From the sequence record OR892555.1: DNA of 64,000 nucleotides. One strand, given 5' to 3'. The stretch's first letter is position 1. Each line of letters starts with the position of its first letter. Positions 1-8,512 of this stretch are shown here, piece by piece. Source of the DNA: Escherichia phage EP1. Both the position numbers and the translations under genes were made by a program. Below the pieces are notes generated by a model, which saw only the letters and a program-made list of their open reading frames with translations, was not told the origin of the DNA and made no database searches.

Positions 1-21
1 ACCATTATTTGTAGTATACAT
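1..21 (-). CDS. 5' end of a minus-strand gene running off the left edge of the window (first 7 codons only)
   Basis: ATG at 19-21 read on minus strand, directly preceded by the conserved GGAG-attcaaa leader of the repeated cassette; frame open to position 1. Confidence 0.3.
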
Positions 22-69
22 TTTGAATCTCCAGTTTAGGAAGTGGGCTTGCTTGCCCGTCTGATAAGT

Positions 70-98
70 AATTTACTTGTTTTCGTTACCAGTTGCAA
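70..98 (-). promoter_or_regulatory. sigma70-like early promoter (TTGCAA-17 nt-TAAATT on minus strand), followed by GC hairpin leader (45-58) and GGAG RBS
   Basis: hexamers and spacing read directly; same architecture as the copy at 2609-2687. Confidence 0.4.
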
Positions 99-112
99 GC
101 CCTTTTATGAAT

Positions 113-436
113 TTATTTTCGTTTGCTTATTTCGTGAACAATAATAGCGTGATAATCTTTCAAGTCACTGATATTTAAAGCATTTAATAAAGTATTATAA
201 TCATCAACTAACTGAAAATCACCGCTTAAAATGTCGCTAATCTGATATGTGTTAGCCTTGAATCTGAAGCCCATCTCTAAACGCTTTAATTGTTCTACGT
301 TTAAACGCTCTAGGAAGGACGTCACAAGATTATTATTGATTTGCTTTGTGGTTGCATCACTTGCCACCTGATGCGCTTTATAGGCTTTATACAGTGCTAA
401 AATAGCAATGAATAAGGCAACTCCAGAAATTAACAT
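113..436 (-). CDS. hypothetical early protein with N-terminal hydrophobic membrane anchor
   Basis: 107-aa ORF; N-terminus ISGVALFIAILALY is hydrophobic. Confidence 0.55.
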   Translation of the reverse strand: MLISGVALFIAILALYKAYKAHQVASDATTKQINNNLVTSFLERLNVEQLKRLEMGFRFKANTYQISDILSGDFQLVDDYNTLLNALNISDLKDYHAIIVHEISKRK

Positions 437-726
437 GATGACTTACCTTTGTGAAATAGTTTACCAGTGTGACTAATCTCAAAAGAATCTACCATATCCT
501 TTGTGGATTTAACAGAACTTTTATTTGCATTATCATAGATATCTACCTGAAGCAATGGCTTTTTGTATTCTTTACAAAAGTTCCAAATACAGATAACAAC
601 TTCTTTACCATTGATTTTTCCGTGATACCATTCTGTCACTTCATGAGTCCGGCGCATAGATTCTACAAATTTGATATCTTGTAAAAGCTTGCTCAATTTT
701 GAGCGTACATTTGCAGCAATAAACAT
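430..726 (-). CDS. hypothetical early protein
   Basis: 98-aa ORF; ATG at 726 preceded by GGAG-attcaaaa leader of cassette copy 1. Confidence 0.5.
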   Translation of the reverse strand: MFIAANVRSKLSKLLQDIKFVESMRRTHEVTEWYHGKINGKEVVICIWNFCKEYKKPLLQVDIYDNANKSSVKSTKDMVDSFEISHTGKLFHKGKSSC

Positions 727-778
727 TTTTTGAATCTCCAGTTTAGGATTGATTTGATAAATCTCTTTATCTGGGGCT

Positions 779-807
779 ATCTTATCAGCCTGATAACCCC
801 ATGTAAA
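779..807 (-). promoter_or_regulatory. sigma70-like early promoter, cassette copy 1 (minus strand TTTACA-17 nt-TAAGAT), conserved leader to ATG at 726
   Basis: conserved -35 and TAnnAT -10 with conserved spacer length across copies while spacer sequence varies. Confidence 0.45.
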
Positions 808-816
808 GCAATTTAT

Positions 817-1329
817 TTAGATATCGAAAATATTCATCATTGAATCTTTCAAGGCTTCTAAACGTTCCATTACTTCAGATTCTGCGTCTGCGTTGCTTAC
901 TTCCTCTTTTAGTCTATCCTCTAAATCGTCGCCGTCACTATAGCACCAATCGAAAGCGTAGCCAAGATAAAAACTATCTAAAACCGTATTCCCGTTTGCA
1001 TCGACAACCTTTGCAGATAGGTTATATTCTGAAGCCTCTAAATCCCTTTCTAGTTCTTTCTGTAAGCTGATGTAAGCCTCTTGTGATGGATTTTCCCGAC
1101 CTTGTTTTGCATAGTCGCTAGAAAGCTGTTTAAGGCTATAGCGTAAAGGGATTGCATATTTAAACTCGTTACGCTGGAAGTTAGGATTCTTAATAGTTAC
1201 CCCGCCTTGATGGTTATCTGTAAATTCCCAATCACTGATGCTATGGCTTGCTTCATAGCAGTTAACAGCTTCATAGATGATAGAGAATTTTTCTTTTACA
1301 ACTTCAAAGGTGGCGTCTACAGTTCTCAT
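817..1329 (-). CDS. hypothetical early protein
   Basis: 170-aa ORF, ATG abuts cassette copy 2 leader (GGAG, 7-nt spacer). Confidence 0.55.
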   Translation of the reverse strand: MRTVDATFEVVKEKFSIIYEAVNCYEASHSISDWEFTDNHQGGVTIKNPNFQRNEFKYAIPLRYSLKQLSSDYAKQGRENPSQEAYISLQKELERDLEASEYNLSAKVVDANGNTVLDSFYLGYAFDWCYSDGDDLEDRLKEEVSNADAESEVMERLEALKDSMMNIFDI

Positions 1330-1379
1330 TTTGAATCTCCAGTTTAGGATTGATTTGGTAAAGCTCTTTATCTGGGGCT

Positions 1380-1409
1380 ATACTAGCAAACTTTATAACC
1401 CCATGTAAA
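1380..1409 (-). promoter_or_regulatory. sigma70-like early promoter, cassette copy 2 (TTTACA-18 nt-TAGTAT on minus strand)
   Basis: near-identical ~90 bp element to 1675-1760 and 2143-2230. Confidence 0.45.
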
Positions 1410-1416
1410 GCACTTT

Positions 1417-1674
1417 TTAGATTAAATTGCCAGTTAATGATAAGTGCATTTTGTAACCTTGTTTAGTGTAAACATTAGTTTTACCGATAGTCTTTACACC
1501 TTTAAAAAGATTGTAAGAGCTATGCTTTAAGGTTAATTGCTGGTCACACTTTACACCCCATCTTACAGCAGAATCTTTCCCGTTGTCAATCACTTTTCCG
1601 TCTAAATCTTTTGCCAGTAAACGAGCGTTATCACGAGTTTTTGCATTCACTACTACGTTTTTGATGATAGCCAT
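1417..1674 (-). CDS. hypothetical early protein
   Basis: 85-aa ORF with cassette leader and GGAG RBS. Confidence 0.5.
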   Translation of the reverse strand: MAIIKNVVVNAKTRDNARLLAKDLDGKVIDNGKDSAVRWGVKCDQQLTLKHSSYNLFKGVKTIGKTNVYTKQGYKMHLSLTGNLI

Positions 1675-1723
1675 TTTTGAATCTCCAGTTTAGGTTAGTG
1701 ATAAAATCTCTTTATCTGGGGCT

Positions 1724-1753
1724 ATACTAGCAAACTTTATAACCCCATGTAAA
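1724..1753 (-). promoter_or_regulatory. sigma70-like early promoter, cassette copy 3 (TTTACA-18 nt-TAGTAT)
   Basis: repeat copy; hexamers read on minus strand. Confidence 0.45.
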
Positions 1754-1761
1754 GCACTTTA

Positions 1762-2142
1762 TCAGTTAATTTTAAAGATAGTTACATAACCATCACTACC
1801 AATCATCTGAGAAACTCCAGCTTTCTCGACATTGTAACCCATTTTATCAAGATGGTAAATAGCATCTTCATAACCATATGCCGCGCCTTGATAGCGTCTC
1901 TTCTCACATTTTATCAAGGTTTTACCACGTCCAGCAAGTGCATTAATGATAGCTTTATCACCTGATAAACTACCGTCTAGCATAGTTGCGCGGTAATGGT
2001 TTATTTTGTTGCCATTCACATCATACTTAAAATTGTATGCGTGAACAACAATTATTTTACCTTTGAATTTTTCATCAAGTGTTTTCTCCAGTACATCACG
2101 AAAATTTTCTTTGCTGATGAACTTAGGTGCACGATATTTCAT
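1762..2142 (-). CDS. hypothetical early protein
   Basis: 126-aa ORF with cassette leader. Confidence 0.55.
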   Translation of the reverse strand: MKYRAPKFISKENFRDVLEKTLDEKFKGKIIVVHAYNFKYDVNGNKINHYRATMLDGSLSGDKAIINALAGRGKTLIKCEKRRYQGAAYGYEDAIYHLDKMGYNVEKAGVSQMIGSDGYVTIFKIN

Positions 2143-2193
2143 TTTGAATCTCCAGTTTAGGATTGATTTAGTAAAGCTCTTTATCTGGGGCTT

Positions 2194-2223
2194 ATGGTAT
2201 CAATCTTTTAAGCCCCTTGTAAA
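2194..2223 (-). promoter_or_regulatory. sigma70-like early promoter, cassette copy 4 (TTTACA-18 nt-TACCAT); perfect inverted repeat GGGGCTTA/TAAGCCCC spans it
   Basis: repeat copy; -10 differs in sequence but keeps TAnnAT and position. Confidence 0.45.
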
Positions 2224-2228
2224 GTACT

Positions 2229-2390
2229 TTATGCAATAATTTTTATAACTTCTTTTAGTGTGATGTTTTCGCCATTTGTCAAGGCTAAGCATTTGTTACC
2301 AGTGCATGACAAGTAACTAAACGAGACTTTACCAGTTTTAGAAAATCCGTCAAGCCCTTTGTAAGTAATGATAGAGTTTTCTTTTATCAT
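2229..2390 (-). CDS. possible small ORF (53 aa) missed by the 60-aa ORF track
   Basis: ATG at 2388-2390 to TAA at 2229-2231 translated by hand (MIKENSIITYKGLDGF...); fills a gap between genes but has no clear Shine-Dalgarno. Confidence 0.25.
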   Translation of the reverse strand: MIKENSIITYKGLDGFSKTGKVSFSYLSCTGNKCLALTNGENITLKEVIKIIA

Positions 2391-2401
2391 TTGTCAAGCC
2401 C

Positions 2402-2608
2402 TTAAACATCATAATAATAGGTTGCTGTATGTCGAATATGTTTTCTTGTGTGAGTTGTCAAGTAACAAGCTGAATTAATTGATGTATTTACATACATATC
2501 ATAATCTTTCTCTGATATACGTTGCCAAACGTCACAAATCAACATATAAAAACGACGATGTTTTGTTTCAGTATTATCTACAATCATTAATTCACGTTGA
2601 TATAACAT
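2402..2608 (-). CDS. hypothetical early protein
   Basis: 68-aa ORF immediately downstream of cassette copy 5. Confidence 0.45.
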   Translation of the reverse strand: MLYQRELMIVDNTETKHRRFYMLICDVWQRISEKDYDMYVNTSINSACYLTTHTRKHIRHTATYYYDV

Positions 2609-2658
2609 TTTCAGATTCTCCAGTTTAGGAAGTGGGCTTGCTTGCCCGTCTGATGCAA

Positions 2659-2687
2659 ATACTAAATAACTTTGTTTTGCAGGTCAA
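2659..2687 (-). promoter_or_regulatory. sigma70-like early promoter, cassette copy 5 (TTGACC-17 nt-TAGTAT), GC hairpin leader at 2634-2647
   Basis: hexamers and spacing read directly on minus strand. Confidence 0.4.
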
Positions 2688-2779
2688 GCAAATTTTTAAA
2701 AATATTTTTAGGAATTGCCAGAGGAGAACGCGCACACGACTACCACAAAACATAGCACAAATCAAGAATTATTTTTCAG

Positions 2780-3042
2780 TTCTCTACAGATTTTTCTCTT
2801 GACTTTTGGGGAGAGGGGGAGTAAGAGGGGGAGAGGGGCAGGGCTGGCACTATCTACCTACCTGCACAATTCTAAAATGATTTTTCTTGCCCGACACTCG
2901 CCGGGTCTGCACGTTTTGAAAATGAAAAAGCTCTTTGGAGTCCACCTGCACAAATTGAAAATGAATTTTCCCTTTGGATTTCAAAATTTTCTCTACAGAT
3001 TTCTGTCCAGACTTTTACCTGCACAATTTTAAAATGAAAAAG
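2780..3042. repeat. ORF-free region with four copies of a ~20-25 bp motif (CCTGCACAAnTTnnAAAATGAA; 2861-2880, 2907-2930, 2945-2965, 3018-3042) and two copies of TTCTCTACAGATTT (2780-2795, 2989-3005)
   Basis: direct repeats at irregular spacing; no credible ORF on the transcribed strand. Confidence 0.6.
2808..2846 (+). repeat. polypurine G-rich tract (GGGGAGAGGGGGAGTAAGAGGGGGAGAGGGGCAGGG) with five G-runs
   Basis: read directly; stands out in an AT-rich genome. Confidence 0.6.
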
Positions 3043-3110
3043 CCCTCCTTACCTGAAAATTTTACCAGATAAGAAAGGCTTAGTCTATTGTGAATATGCT
3101 ACAGAGTTTC

Positions 3111-3893
3111 TTAGTTCTTTGCAGCTAAGAACTTGATATTGGAAATGTCTACAATTGCTTCAGCATCTTTCTCATTTGCTGCAAGAATGTACACATCAGG
3201 TTCACTTCCAAATGTCGCTGCACGTTGCATACTGCCTTTCAACGGTGGGGTAACTTGAGCGTTACTTAGAGACATTCTCTCAACCGGAGGGTTACTCCGA
3301 TGTACCTTGTTCTTACGATGCCTGAAGAGGGTAACTCCGTCTTCGTTGACAACGGCTACCCCTGCAAAGTATTGTGGTTCACTGTGATTACCCCATGTTG
3401 ACAGAGTATTAAACATTGCCTCTTCAAATACGTAAAGGTAAACATCAACATCTTTCAAGATGTGATTCATGATTACCACAACAGCTTTCGGGTCAAGTCC
3501 ACCAATACCTGCACCAATCATTGGGAGACCAACTTTCTTCAGTTGATTCACTTTGCAGTACTGGTTAAGGCTCAACAAAGCACTCTCAAGAGCATCGTAA
3601 CGAGCATCTTTACCAGTCTTCAACTGAGTGTACAGGTTAGCAATACGGCCTTGTTTAAGACGTGCTACAGAGAGTTTACCAAGCAGTTTCTGACAAGGTT
3701 TATGCTCTCTTCCTCCTGCTACACGGTAGACTTCGGCATCAGTTTCATAGGCTTTTGGGTAACCTTTAGAAATCTTGTCAGCAATACCTGCACCCATCAG
3801 GTTCATACAGTTGCAACCGTGACCAATGATATCAAACTTACCTTTTTCAAAGTCTGCGAAGATATCACCTTTGATGACTTTTACAATACCCAT
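3111..3893 (-). CDS. macro-domain protein (ADP-ribose binding/processing) with ~90-aa C-terminal extension
   Basis: N-terminal GDIF...DIIGHGCNCMNLMGAGIADKI and later GLPMIGAGIGG match macro-domain glycine-rich signatures. Confidence 0.8.
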   Translation of the reverse strand: MGIVKVIKGDIFADFEKGKFDIIGHGCNCMNLMGAGIADKISKGYPKAYETDAEVYRVAGGREHKPCQKLLGKLSVARLKQGRIANLYTQLKTGKDARYDALESALLSLNQYCKVNQLKKVGLPMIGAGIGGLDPKAVVVIMNHILKDVDVYLYVFEEAMFNTLSTWGNHSEPQYFAGVAVVNEDGVTLFRHRKNKVHRSNPPVERMSLSNAQVTPPLKGSMQRAATFGSEPDVYILAANEKDAEAIVDISNIKFLAAKN

Positions 3894-3894
3894 C

Positions 3895-4095
3895 TTACCA
3901 TTTCTCCCATGATTCTTTATCTTCAGAAGGTTTTACACGTTGACCTTCATGGTCTACCCAGATTCCACCACAACCTTCACAGAGTGTTGGCATAGCATAA
4001 CCAGCTTTGAACTCTTCTTCAGAGATAAGACCTCTCAAGTCTCCTGTATCACGTCCAAACAGTTCGATGGAACAATCTTTGCAGAAATCAGCCAT
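3895..4095 (-). CDS. small zinc-ribbon protein (two CxxC pairs)
   Basis: 66-aa ORF with CKDC ... CEGC. Confidence 0.5.
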   Translation of the reverse strand: MADFCKDCSIELFGRDTGDLRGLISEEEFKAGYAMPTLCEGCGGIWVDHEGQRVKPSEDKESWEKW

Positions 4096-4315
4096 TTGAT
4101 ATTACCTCTTGGAAGAATGTACCTTTCAAATCCCATTCAGCTTTATAATCAGTCAATGTGTTAGTATCGAACATTGTATAATATTTGTAATCACCATTCT
4201 TAAACTGGTCATGCAGTGATGGGTTGCAGAACGGAGCTACTGTATCCCTGTCCAAGAATACAGCACCAGATAACACTTTGCGTGTATTTTTACACCTTAC
4301 TAATATTGCTTTCAT
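4088..4315 (-). CDS. hypothetical protein
   Basis: 75-aa ORF in the minus-strand gene array. Confidence 0.45.
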   Translation of the reverse strand: MKAILVRCKNTRKVLSGAVFLDRDTVAPFCNPSLHDQFKNGDYKYYTMFDTNTLTDYKAEWDLKGTFFQEVISNG

Positions 4316-4616
4316 AAAGTACCTTCTCTGTTAACTCGTACAAGTCTACATGTTCAATGCCAGCAATGTCAATACCAAGTTTAGCATATCGCTCTTTGAT
4401 GCCTTCTTTATTTTGAAATATGAGACACCAATGATTTCTTAAAGACTCTTCCAGTTTATCTACACAATCATGAAAGGTTGGTGTGTCACCTCTTGTACCA
4501 ACCATTGCCACAACACCATAAAGAAACTCACCATTACCATATGTGACTTGTGCTACACCAATATCTTTCTCACTATCTTGGATGACAGCTACAAAGGTTT
4601 TACCGTTCAATTCCAT
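4290..4616 (-). CDS. hypothetical protein
   Basis: 108-aa ORF. Confidence 0.5.
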   Translation of the reverse strand: MELNGKTFVAVIQDSEKDIGVAQVTYGNGEFLYGVVAMVGTRGDTPTFHDCVDKLEESLRNHWCLIFQNKEGIKERYAKLGIDIAGIEHVDLYELTEKVLYESNISKV

Positions 4617-4773
4617 CAGAGACTACCTCTTCAATTTGCTGTAGAATTGCTTCTGAAGTTTCTTCCCACATCGTCATACTGTCAATATCACCACAACAAC
4701 TTTCTCCAGCAACGTTGTAACGTGCTTGACCATATTCTTTGATGAGTTCAATCAACTTCTCTTTGCTTGACAT
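4600..4773 (-). CDS. possible small acidic ORF (57 aa) missed by the ORF track
   Basis: ATG at 4771-4773 preceded by GAGGAAG; fills the 4616-4775 gap and overlaps the next start by 17 nt. Confidence 0.3.
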   Translation of the reverse strand: MSSKEKLIELIKEYGQARYNVAGESCCGDIDSMTMWEETSEAILQQIEEVVSDGIER

Positions 4774-4774
4774 G

Positions 4775-5044
4775 TTACTTCCTCGTTTTGAGAACTGCCA
4801 TAATTTCTTTGGTATCTTCTAAGAACCATGTGTAGTGATTCTCTTTTATTTCTGGATGAGTGTCAATCTTTAATTTGCAATCTCTTCCAGTATCTTTCAG
4901 TTGAGTTGTGATACCCTTCATAAAGATATGGCACATCACATCATCCATAACCATTGGCATGAAGTCAATGCGCATGTAAGTATCTTTTGGTCTTGGAAGA
5001 AGTAAATAACCTTCTGTATAGAACAGTTCTGTCTCTTGACTCAT
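4775..5044 (-). CDS. hypothetical protein
   Basis: 89-aa ORF. Confidence 0.5.
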   Translation of the reverse strand: MSQETELFYTEGYLLLPRPKDTYMRIDFMPMVMDDVMCHIFMKGITTQLKDTGRDCKLKIDTHPEIKENHYTWFLEDTKEIMAVLKTRK

Positions 5045-5310
5045 TGCTGCTTATTCCCTAACAAAATCATATCAATCAAATTATTGGCTTTCATCGTACA
5101 CTGATAGTACCCATCACGATAAAATTCAAGGGCTTGTGACAGGTCTGTGCCTGTATTACCCTTGACAACGTAGCGTGATTCTTCTTGAGTATACTTATCA
5201 CTTTCACTTACTTGGGAGTTTTTGAACGTAGAGTTCACTTTGTTCATTGAACACCCTGACATAAGTATCAGTAGCACAAATGTTATAAAACTCTGGCTTA
5301 GTCTTTTCAT
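5041..5310 (-). CDS. putative lipoprotein, candidate outer-membrane spanin subunit
   Basis: signal peptide ending in lipobox-like LMSGC; gene overlaps the 3' end of the preceding membrane-protein gene. Confidence 0.4.
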   Translation of the reverse strand: MKRLSQSFITFVLLILMSGCSMNKVNSTFKNSQVSESDKYTQEESRYVVKGNTGTDLSQALEFYRDGYYQCTMKANNLIDMILLGNKQQ

Positions 5311-5551
5311 ATGTCAATACCTCTTTTGTGTGTTTGTTTTTAGCAAGCACGTCTTTCAAATCATTTTTGTAACTGGAGCTAAGATTTGCTAAACCTTCTT
5401 GGTAAGCATCCTTAGCAACACTTACAAGTTTCTGGTTAGTTAACTCTGTTTGAGTGACTTGGTAATCCTTGTAAGAATAACCCCCCCAGACACCTACACC
5501 AATCAGAAAAACAACTATGAAAGCGGCTTGACAGAACTCTTTAAATTTCAT
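5204..5551 (-). CDS. type-II membrane protein, candidate inner-membrane spanin subunit
   Basis: N-terminal TM (AAFIVVFLIGVGVWGG) then hydrophilic domain; overlapped by the lipoprotein gene in another frame. Confidence 0.4.
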   Translation of the reverse strand: MKFKEFCQAAFIVVFLIGVGVWGGYSYKDYQVTQTELTNQKLVSVAKDAYQEGLANLSSSYKNDLKDVLAKNKHTKEVLTYEKTKPEFYNICATDTYVRVFNEQSELYVQKLPSK

Positions 5552-5567
5552 TTGTCAATCTCCTAAA

Positions 5568-5592
5568 ACGAAAAAGGCTCCCGAAGGAGCCT
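5568..5592 (-). terminator. rho-independent terminator (GGCTCC-cgaa-GGAGCC then U-run on minus strand)
   Basis: perfect 6-bp GC stem, tetraloop, T-tract read directly. Confidence 0.6.
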
Positions 5593-5603
5593 GTATCATA
5601 ACC

Positions 5604-6068
5604 TTAACCGAGGACTTTAGCAAGGACATTTGCAGCCATCGTCGAAGCTTTTGCAGCAGCAGCTACGCCAGCTTTGATAGTGCTATCCTTAATGGCAGAT
5701 ACCGTTGCAGCATCAGTAAAGAGATATGTGGTAGTTTGTGAACCACTTGTAAAGGAAAGCATAAGAGCAGTTTCCAGATTGAAAGAACGGTACGGAGCAC
5801 CGGACTGTACAATTCCTTTAGCACCCAACTCTGAAGCCATACCCATGTCATAGATGGTCATCAGGTTTTCTTTATGTGCTGTAGTAGAACCGACACCTTT
5901 AACGTGTTTTGAAACGTTCAGCAGAGCACGATATTCACGGATATCACCATCAGCTTTTACATTGACAGCACGAAAGATTTTGCCATCAAAGTTGCTTTTA
6001 ATGATATCACGAACAACCTGTGATTTGTTTGCTGATGCGTCGATAGCTACTGTAATAATGTTTTGCAT
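5604..6068 (-). CDS. hypothetical protein (154 aa, Ala/Ser/Thr-rich C-terminus)
   Basis: ORF with own terminator downstream; no recognisable motif. Confidence 0.5.
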   Translation of the reverse strand: MQNIITVAIDASANKSQVVRDIIKSNFDGKIFRAVNVKADGDIREYRALLNVSKHVKGVGSTTAHKENLMTIYDMGMASELGAKGIVQSGAPYRSFNLETALMLSFTSGSQTTTYLFTDAATVSAIKDSTIKAGVAAAAKASTMAANVLAKVLG

Positions 6069-6080
6069 GATTTCTCTCTC

Positions 6081-6776
6081 TTAGTGTTTGATAAGCATTG
6101 TGTTAATTTCTGGAAGGATTCGTTTAACCTTCTCAACATTCCTTACTGTATCTTCTATAAAACATACTACATCATAGTACGGAAGAATGCAAGACTGAAT
6201 CATACGAACTTTCAAACTTTCTGCACTGATTCTATTTGAACCAAAACCACGCATAAAAAGCATGTAGTCAGTCACGATATGCTTGTCAATAAACAAGTGG
6301 GTTGGTACACGTTGAGACTCACCACGAGCAGTTAAAACACCGATTGCAGCACTTTTATGGATGCCTGAAATGATGTTAAAGATGTACGTAGGTTGTGCAT
6401 CAACTGACTCAATCAAGTTTGTATACTGTGACAGAGTGCCATCTTCCAGATATGTTGAGTTTGTTGGCTTATCAAACTTAGTGAGAACACCATCAATATC
6501 TGTTAAAACCATTGGCTTCTTCATATCAAGGTCTTTTGCAACCAAGATTAAGCTGTCACGTTTAACGGCTACTGACTTACCTGTTTGAAGGTCTGTACAG
6601 AGAACTGTTTCAGCAGATGAATGAAAGTTTTTGAAGTCACATTCAACAACCCTTGCAGTATCTGCAAAGTCTTCTTTCATAAGGTCTGTCCAGCTTGCAG
6701 CACTAATATCAATAGCCAGAGGATTGATATCGTAAGCGTGACAAAATACCTTATCCAATTGTTTTAATTCGCTCAT
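6081..6776 (-). CDS. HAD-superfamily phosphatase/nucleotidase-like protein
   Basis: DIDGVL (DxDG motif I), GVLTAR (motif II) and FIEDTVRN (motif IV-like); track start is TTG at 6818, first in-frame ATG is 6776 by frame arithmetic; start uncertain. Confidence 0.35.
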   Translation of the reverse strand: MSELKQLDKVFCHAYDINPLAIDISAASWTDLMKEDFADTARVVECDFKNFHSSAETVLCTDLQTGKSVAVKRDSLILVAKDLDMKKPMVLTDIDGVLTKFDKPTNSTYLEDGTLSQYTNLIESVDAQPTYIFNIISGIHKSAAIGVLTARGESQRVPTHLFIDKHIVTDYMLFMRGFGSNRISAESLKVRMIQSCILPYYDVVCFIEDTVRNVEKVKRILPEINTMLIKH

Positions 6777-7302
6777 GTTTAACCTTTTTGATGTTTGTTG
6801 CAAACTCACATTGAGCAAGCACCTTCATGTTATTGTACACATCTTGAGAGTATTGTCTAGCTTTTGGAATGTGGTATGAGTATCCTGCATTATATGAAGC
6901 CAAGACACGCTGTAAAGAGTATTTCCCATTAGGATTACCATGAACCTTAGTCCAGAACTGAAGCTCTTTGTGTGTCTCCTTTGCAGCATAATCGAAGTCT
7001 CTGACAAGTTTCTTCTTAGCTACATTTGGGTTAACTTTGTTACGCTTTACAACAGTCTTCAAGTGATTCTGGAACAATCCATAATCGTGAGTCTTTTTAT
7101 TTTCAAGACGAAGACCTAACTCTGACTCTTGTAAGGCTATAGCGGCTAAGGTTAATCCCCAACCTTTACCCATCTCTTTCTCACCGTAGTGATAAGCTTT
7201 AAGCATGTTTGTTTTCTGACTGATGGATAATTCTGGACAGTCTGAAGCGACTGCCAGATGTGCTGTTAAGAATAAGCACAAACCTAAAATGAACTTCTTC
7301 AT
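6751..7302 (-). CDS. secreted lytic transglycosylase (SLT domain) with cleavable signal peptide; candidate endolysin
   Basis: signal peptide MKKFILGLCLFLTAHLAVA; SLT motifs ES, GLFQ and SYNAG in order. Confidence 0.7.
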   Translation of the reverse strand: MKKFILGLCLFLTAHLAVASDCPELSISQKTNMLKAYHYGEKEMGKGWGLTLAAIALQESELGLRLENKKTHDYGLFQNHLKTVVKRNKVNPNVAKKKLVRDFDYAAKETHKELQFWTKVHGNPNGKYSLQRVLASYNAGYSYHIPKARQYSQDVYNNMKVLAQCEFATNIKKVKHERIKTIG

Positions 7303-7361
7303 TGGTTCTCCTATTTAGTTCAACATGCAAGCAATTATACACTAATCTTCACAAAACACAA

Positions 7362-7388
7362 ATAAAAAAGGCTGCCGAAGCAGCCCTT
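7362..7388 (-). terminator. rho-independent terminator (GGCTGC-cgaa-GCAGCC then U-run) after rIIB-like gene
   Basis: stem-loop and T-tract read directly. Confidence 0.6.
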
Positions 7389-7402
7389 TAAGAATTTACT
7401 TA

Positions 7403-8512
7403 TCAGATTTCACGTTTACGTTGAGAAATCAATTCACCAGCAGTACCTACAACAACATGCAGTGCTTCAGATTTGCCATCCCATTCTTTGACAACCTGAC
7501 GCTGACCATTCACGATTGCTGCAACTTCATAACGGGAAGCTCGCATTTTCATATCATGGTAATCAGTTGGTACAGATACAACGTCTCGTGGATGTACACG
7601 AACTTTCAGGATAGTATCACCAGAGAAGCTACGTACATAATCCCAAGCACCGACATGCAGACCTTGAGAGCAAGTTACTGTACGGTCATTATCAACCATC
7701 CAGCGTGGCATCTCTACAACGTTACCCAAATCGTTAGGAACTTTGCATGTACGGGAGTCAAACAGCTTACCACCACGAGTTGTAACTTTCTTCCAACCGA
7801 TGATATAACCTTCTTCATCAATCTCAACATCAAGGTGAGATACAAAGCCCCAAAGTTGTTCTACAGAATCTTTGGATGGGTTTTCCATCAGTTTTTCGAA
7901 GAATGCTACCAGACGTTTAAAGCCATCATCACCAACTTTCATCATGTCCAGAATACGGTCTACCAGAGTGGAACGCATTTGAACAGCACCGTAGTACAGG
8001 TTATCACCTTTGATAGTGATTGCACCCTGAGTGAAGTTCTCGATAGACTTACGAATGTTCATCAGTTCGAAAGCTTTCTTGTACTCACCACCTACAACAG
8101 CCATCACGATTTCTTTGTAGTTAGGATGGGTAGATTCAACGATTTCAGAATCTGCACCGAAAGTCATGATAACAGAATCACCAGTAATCATGTACTCAAT
8201 CTGGTTGCCATTCTGCATCGCTTCATGCAGTTGGTTAACAGGTTCCTTCTTCACTGCCTCTTTAACAGCCTTGGCAACTGGCTTAGTAGCCGTCTTCTTA
8301 GCAGACTTTGCAATCTGTTTCAGAGTCTGCTTAGCTGACTTAGAAGATGCTTTCTTAGCACCTTTCAGTGTTGCTTCGTGACGTTCTACAGCACGACCAA
8401 CGGAACGAGTAGAAGTGTTATACTTCATTGCAATGGCAGTTTTGGTAAGTTTACCTTCCTGAACCAGTGCGTAGATTTCTGCGTCGATTTGTGCTTTAGT
8501 TTTAGTAGTCAT
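7403..8512 (-). CDS. rIIB: rIIB-like protein
   Basis: 369-aa ORF immediately downstream of rIIA with basic Lys/Ala-rich N-terminal region; call rests on position and size. Confidence 0.5.
   Translation of the reverse strand: MTTKTKAQIDAEIYALVQEGKLTKTAIAMKYNTSTRSVGRAVERHEATLKGAKKASSKSAKQTLKQIAKSAKKTATKPVAKAVKEAVKKEPVNQLHEAMQNGNQIEYMITGDSVIMTFGADSEIVESTHPNYKEIVMAVVGGEYKKAFELMNIRKSIENFTQGAITIKGDNLYYGAVQMRSTLVDRILDMMKVGDDGFKRLVAFFEKLMENPSKDSVEQLWGFVSHLDVEIDEEGYIIGWKKVTTRGGKLFDSRTCKVPNDLGNVVEMPRWMVDNDRTVTCSQGLHVGAWDYVRSFSGDTILKVRVHPRDVVSVPTDYHDMKMRASRYEVAAIVNGQRQVVKEWDGKSEALHVVVGTAGELISQRKREI

Follow-up and report, generated by a model that had tools for sequence, protein, structure and literature searches.

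A repeated cassette with a predicted promoter inside an RNA hairpin precedes most of the small genes of an exchangeable array in Escherichia phage EP1 and related Ounavirinae

Introduction

Cassettes that combine a promoter with an RNA stem-loop, known as PeSLs (promoter-early stem-loop), have been described in the T4-type phages RB49, phi1, PST and nt-1 (PMC2839356; PMC4122927). Here we analyze a similar element that is repeated in a stretch of 64,000 nucleotides from Escherichia phage EP1 (OR892555.1; hereinafter, the window), where it precedes small genes on the minus strand, and in related phages. In RB49 and phi1, a PeSL consists, in this order, of a stop codon, an AT-rich stretch, a sigma-70 promoter, a GGGG...CCCC stem-loop, a Shine-Dalgarno sequence (SD) and an ATG; the stem-loop, in which G·T pairs are allowed, is located between the -35 and -10 elements, over the -10 or just after it. 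The PeSLs are ~100 bp long, number ~50 per genome, and occupy plastic regions before orphan genes, where they bound the insertions and deletions (indels) that distinguish close relatives. Both promoter and terminator/attenuator activity in reporters and encapsidated mini-circles have been reported for the RB49 PeSLs (PMC2839356). The early promoters of T4, denoted 'UP/-35/TGn/-10', are served by the host sigma-70 and consist of stacked recognition elements (PMC2988021).

Parts of the element analyzed here are present in the published descriptions of Felix O1-like phages. The Felix O1 paper reports, without interpretation, 57-bp and 39-bp direct repeats between genes 15/16 and 19/20, and 18/19 and 20/21, and omits these repeats from its promoter list. 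The record of phage Mordin marks a 14-bp repeat_region beside nine ribosome-binding sites (RBS), and 42 promoters but no composite element are predicted in the UAB_Phi87 paper. Within a limited literature search, no publication linking PeSLs to the Felix O1 lineage was found.

We consider it likely that each of these cassettes contains a sigma-70 early promoter situated within an RNA hairpin, together with a common leader and SD, and is a crossover point at which gene modules are exchanged. The evidence consists of the conserved geometry of the promoter, the covariation in the hairpin and the positions of the junctions at which the arrays of related phages differ.

Six cassettes between the small genes of the window

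Bases 1-3200 of the window are 95% identical to Escherichia phage SUSP2 (Ounavirinae, Suspvirus) and match 253 phage records. Between 22 and 2700, there are six cassettes, all on the minus strand, four of which we assign to type A and two to type B. The leader/RBS block CCTAAACTGGAGATTCAAA is found on the minus strand at 22, 729, 1330, 1676, 2143 and 2611, in five exact copies and one with 3 mismatches, against a chance expectation of 0.05 matches. The sequences TGCTTTACAnGGGG and CCCCAGATAAAGAG are each present in the same four type A copies, CAGACGGGCAAGCAAGCCCAC is a marker of both type B copies, and a repeat finder reports 60-69-nt families at the cassette positions. Consensus scans identify TTTACA-17/18-TAAGAT/TAGTAT/TAGTAT/TACCAT in the type A copies, with TG ahead of the -10 in 4/4, and TTGACC-17-TAGTAT in copy 5. 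Block, repeat and consensus scans thus agree with an earlier reading of the same DNA (hereinafter, the sequence-only reading), in which six repeated promoter-leader-RBS copies, four of one kind and two variants, had been recognized. A cassette is 86-92 bp long, occupies the whole interval between two successive genes, from stop codon to start codon, and carries GGAG 7-9 nt ahead of the ATG; this ~90 bp unit recurs every 300-600 bp, always in the same orientation. The array is read as follows, starting from its first gene:

2609 to 2700, minus strand: cassette 5, type B; AT-rich upstream stretch, -35 TTGACC at 2687-2682, 17-nt spacer, -10 TAGTAT at 2664-2659, leader with hairpin GGGC (2647-2644)/GCCC (2637-2634), SD GGAG, ATG at 2608
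2402 to 2608, minus strand: 68-amino-acid (aa) open reading frame (ORF) of family F0, the first array gene, orthologue of Felix O1 ORF15
2229 to 2390, minus strand: 53-aa ORF without a cassette, intact in 7 genomes
2143 to 2228, minus strand: cassette 4, type A; -35 TTTACA at 2223-2218, 18-nt spacer, -10 TACCAT ending at 2194, three-helix hairpin, leader, SD, ATG at 2142
1762 to 2142, minus strand: 126-aa ORF of family F6
1675 to 1761, minus strand: cassette 3, type A; TTTACA at 1753-1748, 18 nt, TAGTAT ending at 1724, hairpin, leader variant GAGATTTTATCAC, ATG at 1674
1417 to 1674, minus strand: 85-aa ORF of family F7
1330 to 1416, minus strand: cassette 2, type A; TTTACA at 1409-1404, 18 nt, TAGTAT ending at 1380, hairpin, ATG at 1329
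817 to 1329, minus strand: 170-aa ORF of family F1, orthologue of Felix O1 ORF16
727 to 816, minus strand: cassette 1, type A; TTTACA at 807-802, 17 nt, TAAGAT at 784-779, inner stem GGGGTTATC (800-792)/GATAGCCCC (781-773), ATG at 726
113 to 726, minus strand: overlapping 98-aa ORF (family F2, 430-726) and 107-aa ORF (113-436), with one cassette for both
22 to 110, minus strand: cassette 0, type B; -35 TTGCAA at 98-93, 17 nt, -10 TAAATT at 75-70, hairpin GGGC (58-55)/GCCC (48-45), SD GGAG at 32-29, ATG at 21

The gene of cassette 0 (family F3) starts at 21 and runs off the window; the array is cut by the left window edge, and that of SUSP2 has 7 further cassettes, 13 in all. The claim that the element precedes each small minus-strand ORF holds for the six cassettes, but there are eight ORFs, and those at 113-436 and 2229-2390 lack one. 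The ORF at 2229-2390 appears to be a genuine gene because it is intact in the 7 genomes and its variable sites are in excess at third codon positions (17/15/35 at positions 1/2/3). A promoter cluster inside this ORF, composed of three tandem GGGCTTGAC promoter-like sites, one of which matches 11/12 consensus positions, was considered and rejected given that the gene appears real and the inner sites are not conserved. The array genes are orphans: their PHROGs are all of unknown function, and searches of the array proteins against Pfam, PADLOC and PDB sequences gave no match. In phage KMM4, the F1 orthologue is cut to 21 codons and is probably a pseudogene or a sequencing error.

Predicted promoter elements of the type A cassettes

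A blastn search (word size 11) with one type A cassette as the query matched 1391 places in 287 phage records, the names of which refer to Escherichia, Salmonella, Shigella, Citrobacter and Erwinia phages and 'Felixounavirus', with 4 records under other names; there was no T4-type phage among these matches. Alignment across the relatives indicates that the cassette is present there, remains associated with genes and keeps its geometry. The promoter statistics below are derived from 91 distinct type A copies taken from relatives, the type A alignment (conservation and RNAalifold) from 83 distinct copies, the type B statistics from 64 distinct copies, and the comparison of arrays from 12 genomes of three genera.

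The layout of type A consists of an A-rich upstream stretch, TTTACA, 17-18 nt, G-14 and TAnnnT. The distance from TTTACA to TAnnnT is 17 nt in 82/91 copies, 18 nt in 8 and 16 nt in 1, and each of the 91 copies has a single TAnnnT at that position. There are 12 different -10 hexamers among these copies, with T-12, A-11 and T-7 constant. In the alignment, CTTTACA, T-12, A-11 and T-7 show little or no variation, and at least 90% of the sequences have G-14. This pattern of conservation appears to be that of an extended -10 sigma-70 promoter. The cleanest evidence, together with the fixed 17-nt spacing, comes from G-14, T-12 and A-11, because these positions sit in the loop of the hairpin described below, where conservation cannot be explained by pairing. 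The upstream stretch, AATAAAGTR, resembles an UP element in its A-richness. Transcription is expected to start at the A or G of CCCC-AG-ATAAAG. The TAAAGT just 5' of the type A -35 was considered as the true -10 and rejected, as the -35 scores upstream of it are at background; it aligns with the type B -10 and looks like a relic or a part of the UP-like stretch.

A covarying hairpin that encloses the predicted promoter

All type A copies of the window can be folded into three stacked helices, AAAGU/GCUUU, CUUUA/UAAAG and GGGGYUWW.../...WWRGCCCC, of 5-6, 5 and 8-10 bp, respectively, separated by 1x1 and 3x3 internal loops. The folding energies of this ~20 bp hairpin are between -21.6 and -27.7 kcal/mol (z -2.6 to -4.75), and the same three helices are predicted independently by RNAalifold on the 83 sequences. 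The hairpin encloses the -35, which lies in the middle helix, and the -10, which is divided between the loop and the 3' arm of the inner helix. The leader contributes its first ~15 nt as the 3' arms of the outer helices. The short spacer hairpin of the sequence-only reading thus exists, but its 8-nt arms are only the tip of a much larger structure.

Several lines of evidence indicate that this structure is under selection. With the structure imposed on the alignment, 97.4% of the cells pair, compared to 31-60% when the partner columns are slid, and the covariation score is 0.091, compared to at most 0.018 for the slid versions; none of 500 shuffles reaches 0.091. At pair 10-61, 56 sequences have G-C, 14 have U-A and 4 have G·U; at pair 25-46, U·G is found 48 times, C-G 33 times and U-A once. 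The GGGG and CCCC arms are nearly invariant, and in Erwinia phages both are changed, to GGTG...CACC, in 4/4 copies of phage phiEa104. A one-base insertion is likewise matched in both arms (GGGGYTAT/ATAGCCCC vs GGGGYTTAT/ATAAGCCCC). The inner stems are 8-11 bp long in 44/47 distinct cores, and the observed mean was not reached in any of 2000 arm permutations. On the gene strand, there are 135 G·U cells and 5 A·C cells; therefore, the structure is selected on this strand, either as RNA or as that single DNA strand. An Rfam scan of bases 1-5000 at E <= 1 identified no family.

These observations affect the interpretation of both the spacer and the leader. The sequence-only reading had regarded conserved hexamers around a freely varying spacer as the signature of a promoter; G-14, T-12, A-11 and the spacing support this view, but the spacer is not free, as it forms hairpin arms under selection. 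Much of the conservation of promoter and leader can also be explained by pairing, because the CTTTA of the -35 pairs with the conserved leader sequence ATAAAGAGCTTT, and the leader AGATAAAGAGCTTTAC is conserved at least in part as a pairing partner, given that the 3' arms of the hairpin lie in the leader. A transcript from the cassette's own promoter would lack the 5' half of the hairpin and folds into no stable structure (-3.7 to -7.4 kcal/mol, z -0.7 to +0.6), so that the hairpin would form only in RNA arriving from upstream. The suggestion of RNA-level control through a shared leader is partly supported, as the comparative evidence points to RNA-level features there, with the amendment that the structure belongs to upstream transcripts and not to the leader made by the cassette's own promoter.

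Type B cassettes and the shared 3' block

The type B cassettes carry hexamers that are close to the consensus: the -35 is TTGCAA in 23/64 copies, TTGACA in 20/64 and a close variant in the rest, the spacer is 17 nt in 62/64, and the -10 is TAAAGT, TAAATT, TAGTAT or TATAGT. In most copies, a local hairpin begins 10-11 nt past the -10; its position is fixed and its sequence varies (GGGC/GCCC, GGGGAGGG/CCTTCCCC, GGGGC/GCCCC, GGGA/TCCC, GGGGAAG/CTTCCCC), and some copies have lost it. Type B is thus predicted to be a strong sigma-70 promoter with a hairpin near +4 of the mRNA, on the assumption of a start ~7 nt past the -10. This is the position of known 5' stabilizer hairpins.

Cassettes of both types end in CCTAAACTGGAG-N7-9-ATG, and CCTAAACTGGAG is identical in 117/142 of them. 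This block could fold weakly, as UCC-UAAACU-GGA, into a hairpin containing the SD (-2.7 to -3.6 kcal/mol):

29-40, 736-747, 1337-1348, 1683-1694, 2150-2161 and 2618-2629, minus strand: SD mini-hairpin

The Felix-like variant, CCT[T]AAACT[A]GGAG, has an extra U-A pair and keeps the loop, and the Erwinia phages have CCUU-AYA-AAGG at this site. The mini-hairpin may be a translational operator or a mere product of homogenization.

Gene exchange at the cassettes

The arrays of the 12 genomes share one common gene order and differ by indels of whole modules, and upstream of seven gene families the cassette type depends on the phage, being A in some and B in others. Five junctions are readable, all of them inside cassettes and mostly in the CCTAAACTGGAG block. 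In ESh22, KMM4 and one IMG/VR genome, which lack F12, the type B cassette that follows F4 is now ahead of F9; in EcSzw-2, F15 is missing and its type A cassette is found ahead of F5 instead, the switch lying within CCTAAACTGGAG; in Felix O1, which lacks F6 and F7, the cassette after F0 is now ahead of F1; and where F18 is absent from Sf13 and F10 from EcSzw-2, the junctions are likewise inside a cassette. In all five cases, the promoter part remains with the upstream gene and the crossover is in the shared downstream part. On this comparative evidence, the earlier proposal that the cassette may be a recombination module is supported.

Other rearrangements involve the same sequences. In Mordin, at ~5150-5250, upstream of the gene for a 126-aa protein, a solo half-cassette adjoins a full cassette, the point of fusion being GAGCTTTACCAA|CTTTACATGGGG, apparently through recombination between the CTTTAC of the leader and the CTTTAC of the -35. 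The genome IMG/VR 2974556886 contains, in its array at ~7071-7845, a tandem duplication of a cassette and an 85-aa gene with the junction ...GGAGAATCTAAAATG|CTTTACATGGGG, where the leftover cassette drives only a 9-codon ORF; this duplication could be an assembly artefact. Gene F17 is located upstream of F5 in Sf13 and downstream of F5 in EcSzw-2 and ESh22. In SUSP2 (8285-8330, minus strand), a degenerate remnant of a cassette, GGGGCaaataGCCCCAGATACC, is found immediately after the last array gene and is followed by the terminator of the array (CCCCT...AGGGGCTTTTTT).

Between genera, leader identity is 0.88 for paralogues within a genome, 0.82 for orthologues and 0.83 for non-orthologues, a modest sign of homogenization, and the promoter-hairpin part keeps the orthologous signal.

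The array, its terminators and its surroundings

The array appears to be delimited by terminators at both ends. At its end is a terminator equal to Felix O1 t23, a hairpin with a T-run in SUSP2; consensus scans of the gene strand found no terminator-like site within the array. Upstream, the unit is bounded by the following site:

3040 to 3081, minus strand: canonical terminator (hairpin and T-run) that precedes the array and equals Felix O1 t13

The 500-bp non-coding stretch ahead of the array contains four iterons TCATTTTnAAAnnGTGCAG(GT) on the minus strand within 2862-3037 (at 2862, 2907, 2946 and 3019), most of which are preceded by a CCAAAG-type sequence. They lie at conserved distances from the first array gene (-432, -357, -316, -271) in Suspvirus and Mooglevirus, and two Felixounavirus genomes (Felix O1 and L024) have three iterons at slightly shifted positions. 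The iterons are candidates for a replication origin and could also be binding sites of a regulator. Next to them, at 2808-2848 on the minus strand, is a C-rich tract, gccagccctgcccctctccccctcttactccccctctcccc, in a genome of ~39% G+C; the tract is kept in Felix O1 and Mordin, has no Rfam match, and is followed by an AT-rich palindrome at 2691-2716. There is weak evidence against the repeat region at 2700-3110 being the terminal repeat of the genome: for UAB_Phi87, a 608-bp terminal repeat has been determined, and its record begins in the tRNA region.

The gene at 6751-7302 (minus strand), located beside a polynucleotide kinase gene, is annotated as 'RegB-like' in the records of Mordin and phiEa104. 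This label looks wrong, as the N-terminus of the product resembles a signal peptide and there is a weak match to SLT transglycosylases below the Pfam cut-off; RegB-type control of the GGAG sites, of the kind found in T4, where the RegB endoribonuclease has GGAG Shine-Dalgarno targets in early mRNAs, was rejected given that the product has no RegB match in Pfam or PDB. Family F9 (185 aa) lies left of the window; judged by position and size, the array gene bas63_0107 of Bas63/JohannRWettstein (5208-5750, 180 aa) may be its counterpart. In a knockout screen, bas63_0107 was reported to be more important on E. coli S17-1, and its product to show slight structural similarity to the NAD-binding domain of RNA 2'-phosphotransferase (bioRxiv 10.1101/2024.10.10.617714).

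Proposed mechanism

Each cassette would carry a host sigma-70 promoter, so that each gene could be transcribed by the unmodified host RNA polymerase soon after infection. The type A hairpin would form in transcripts from upstream promoters and most likely separates neighboring units: it might attenuate read-through, be cut as an RNase III-type site or block exonucleases; in the latter two cases, the upstream message would retain a hairpin that protects its 3' end. Of the whole scheme, what the hairpin does is the most uncertain part. A hairpin of this size with internal loops would be consistent with an RNase III-type site or with protection of a 3' end; attenuation, which has been measured for one RB49 PeSL stem-loop (PMC2839356), is possible as well. 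The type B hairpin, ~4 nt into the mRNA, most likely guards the 5' end against decay, and the shared CCTAAACTGGAG-N7-9-ATG block would supply the ribosome-binding site. With a repeat of ~90 bp present in the same orientation every 300-600 bp, the cassettes are expected to act as recombination points, at which whole genes could be deleted, inserted, duplicated or moved with their expression intact.

Several observations weigh against this interpretation. The copies are related by descent, so that the counts given above are not independent. The CTTTA of the -35 and the T-7 of the -10 lie in helices and hence have two possible causes of conservation, and 95.6% of the cells are already paired in the shuffle control. 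No T-run follows any cassette hairpin, AGAUAAAG or ACUUCC being found instead; a role as a classical intrinsic terminator is therefore doubtful and was rejected, in agreement with the consensus scans of the array. The signal of concerted evolution in the leaders is small, and no usable start-site or RNA sequencing data were found in the literature on Felix O1-like phages. Finally, the word 'early', used for these genes in the sequence-only reading, fits only some of them: in a reverse transcription PCR study of Felix O1, ORFs 16, 20, 21 and 22 were maximal 5 min after infection, but ORFs 17, 19 and 23 peaked at 25 min (PMC3185647).

Alternative explanations

The cassettes might be hairpins only, that is, intercistronic processing or stabilizing sites, comparable to the RNase III sites between the early genes of T7, in a single early transcript that spans the array and starts from promoters at its head, with the hexamers being incidental. 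The ~20-bp three-helix hairpin with its internal loops, covariation and gene-strand G·U pairs, the strong type B promoter and canonical terminator ahead of the array, the terminator at its end with none inside, and the pairing of the CTTTA of the '-35' in the middle helix all fit this scenario. We nevertheless consider it unlikely: incidental hexamers would not account for the conservation of G-14, T-12 and A-11 in the loop or for the 17-nt distance in 82/91 copies, the type B cassettes within the array have near-consensus promoters with 17-bp spacers in 62/64 copies, and the RB49 PeSLs of the same layout have been shown to be very strong promoters (PMC2839356). Even less probable is a DNA operator or recognition site, in which the GGGG...CCCC inverted repeat would bind a dimeric phage protein, either a repressor by which early promoters are shut off or a recombination protein. 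An inverted repeat over the spacer and the -10 occupies the classical position of an operator, its GGGG and CCCC are nearly invariant, and the authors of the PeSL studies speculated likewise on their GGGG...CCCC motif. However, the arms change in a compensatory manner, even from GGGG/CCCC to GGTG/CACC, which agrees with pairing better than with a fixed half-site; double-stranded recognition would not be expected to produce so large an excess of G·U (135 cells) over A·C (5 cells), and type B has stems of unrelated sequence at the same position.

Under two further scenarios, the element would not be an early promoter of the host type. The TGCTTTA of type A resembles a MotA box (the T4 box wwwTGCTTtA matches AAGTGCTTTA and AATTGCTTTA in many copies; PMC2988021), and some Felix O1 orthologues peak at 25 min, so type A could be a middle promoter that requires a phage activator, as in T4. 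This is very improbable, and we reject it on spacing: the box ends 19 bp ahead of the -10, not 12 +/- 1, many copies have TACTTTA, and the spacing of TTTACA fits sigma-70 region 4; furthermore, the authors of the Felix O1 paper found no MotA- or AsiA-like genes there, the window itself not having been screened for them. We see hardly any chance that the cassette is a selfish miniature palindrome (MITE-, Correia- or ERIC-like) that spread through intergenic gaps without a role in expression. It is indeed a long imperfect palindrome flanked by the near-direct repeat AAAGWGCTTTAC, and has many copies, including solo and tandem ones; but every copy is in one orientation and extends exactly from stop codon to start codon, 7/7 type A copies of SUSP2 are in this one array, the cassette supplies the only ribosome-binding site of the downstream gene, and it is conserved from Escherichia phages to Erwinia phages. 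A promoter within a hairpin that also marks the points of gene exchange remains the reading we favor.

This reading can be extended, speculatively and with little confidence, to a self-insulating unit of expression and exchange. The hairpin formed in read-through RNA would direct processing, yielding the same mature message whichever promoter is used, while hairpin and leader would be the crossover site of an integrase-free, integron-like system that T4-type and Felix O1-type myoviruses reached independently or exchanged.

Implications and comparison with known systems

Felix O1-like phages are used in Salmonella typing, biocontrol and therapy, and in Bas63 about two-thirds of the genes are dispensable, some of them being important on certain hosts only (bioRxiv 10.1101/2024.10.10.617714). 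If the proposed role of the cassettes is correct, they would explain how accessory early genes are expressed by the unmodified host polymerase and how genes are swapped without broken regulation. For the engineering of these phages, they would also offer sites at which genes are naturally inserted, and small modules usable as promoter, insulator and RBS. Although this kind of element is already known, the cassettes are a good example of a predicted promoter that lies within an RNA hairpin with covariation.

Individual parts of the cassette resemble several well characterized systems. With the T4 early promoters, it shares the A-rich upstream stretch, the -35, the extended -10, the -10 and the location before many small early genes, but the T4 consensus has no embedded hairpin, and the hexamers are weaker here (TTTACA, TAnnnT). 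The RNase III sites between the early genes of T7 are intercistronic hairpins of about two helical turns with internal loops, and cutting leaves a 3' hairpin on the upstream message. In layout, they are similar to type A; they differ in that they are not known to contain promoters and show no sequence similarity. Hairpins at the 5' ends of E. coli mRNAs, of the ompA type, slow RNase E-dependent decay; the type B hairpin, ~4 nt from the predicted 5' end, is similarly placed. As in Botstein's 'linkers' and in integron cassettes, the exchangeable genes are bordered by short conserved sequences, and a newly acquired gene is thereby placed where it can be expressed; in contrast to integrons, no integrase or attC-type site is evident here, and the exchange presumably relies on general homologous recombination.

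The closest counterparts are the PeSLs. Both elements have a sigma-70-like promoter with an AT-rich upstream stretch, a stem associated with the -10 (in type A, it spans the spacer and the -10, and in type B it begins 10-11 nt past the -10), an SD at the 3' end, a large number of copies within a plastic region ahead of orphan genes, which here is one array, and indels between relatives that are bounded by the motif. The cassettes analyzed here thus display all five sequence-level features of PeSLs. The differences are that PeSLs are found in T4-type genomes and these cassettes in Ounavirinae, that the type A stem continues into two outer helices which pair the -35 region with the start of the leader, that most junctions are found in the block next to the SD and not in the AT-rich 5' part, and that all cassettes form one co-oriented array. 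Because the blastn search with a type A cassette matched no T4-type phage, the cassette appears to be a functional analogue of the PeSL in another subfamily, not a homologue. If so, the 'linker' mechanism of PeSLs would extend beyond the T4-type phages, a question that the authors of the PeSL studies left for examination.

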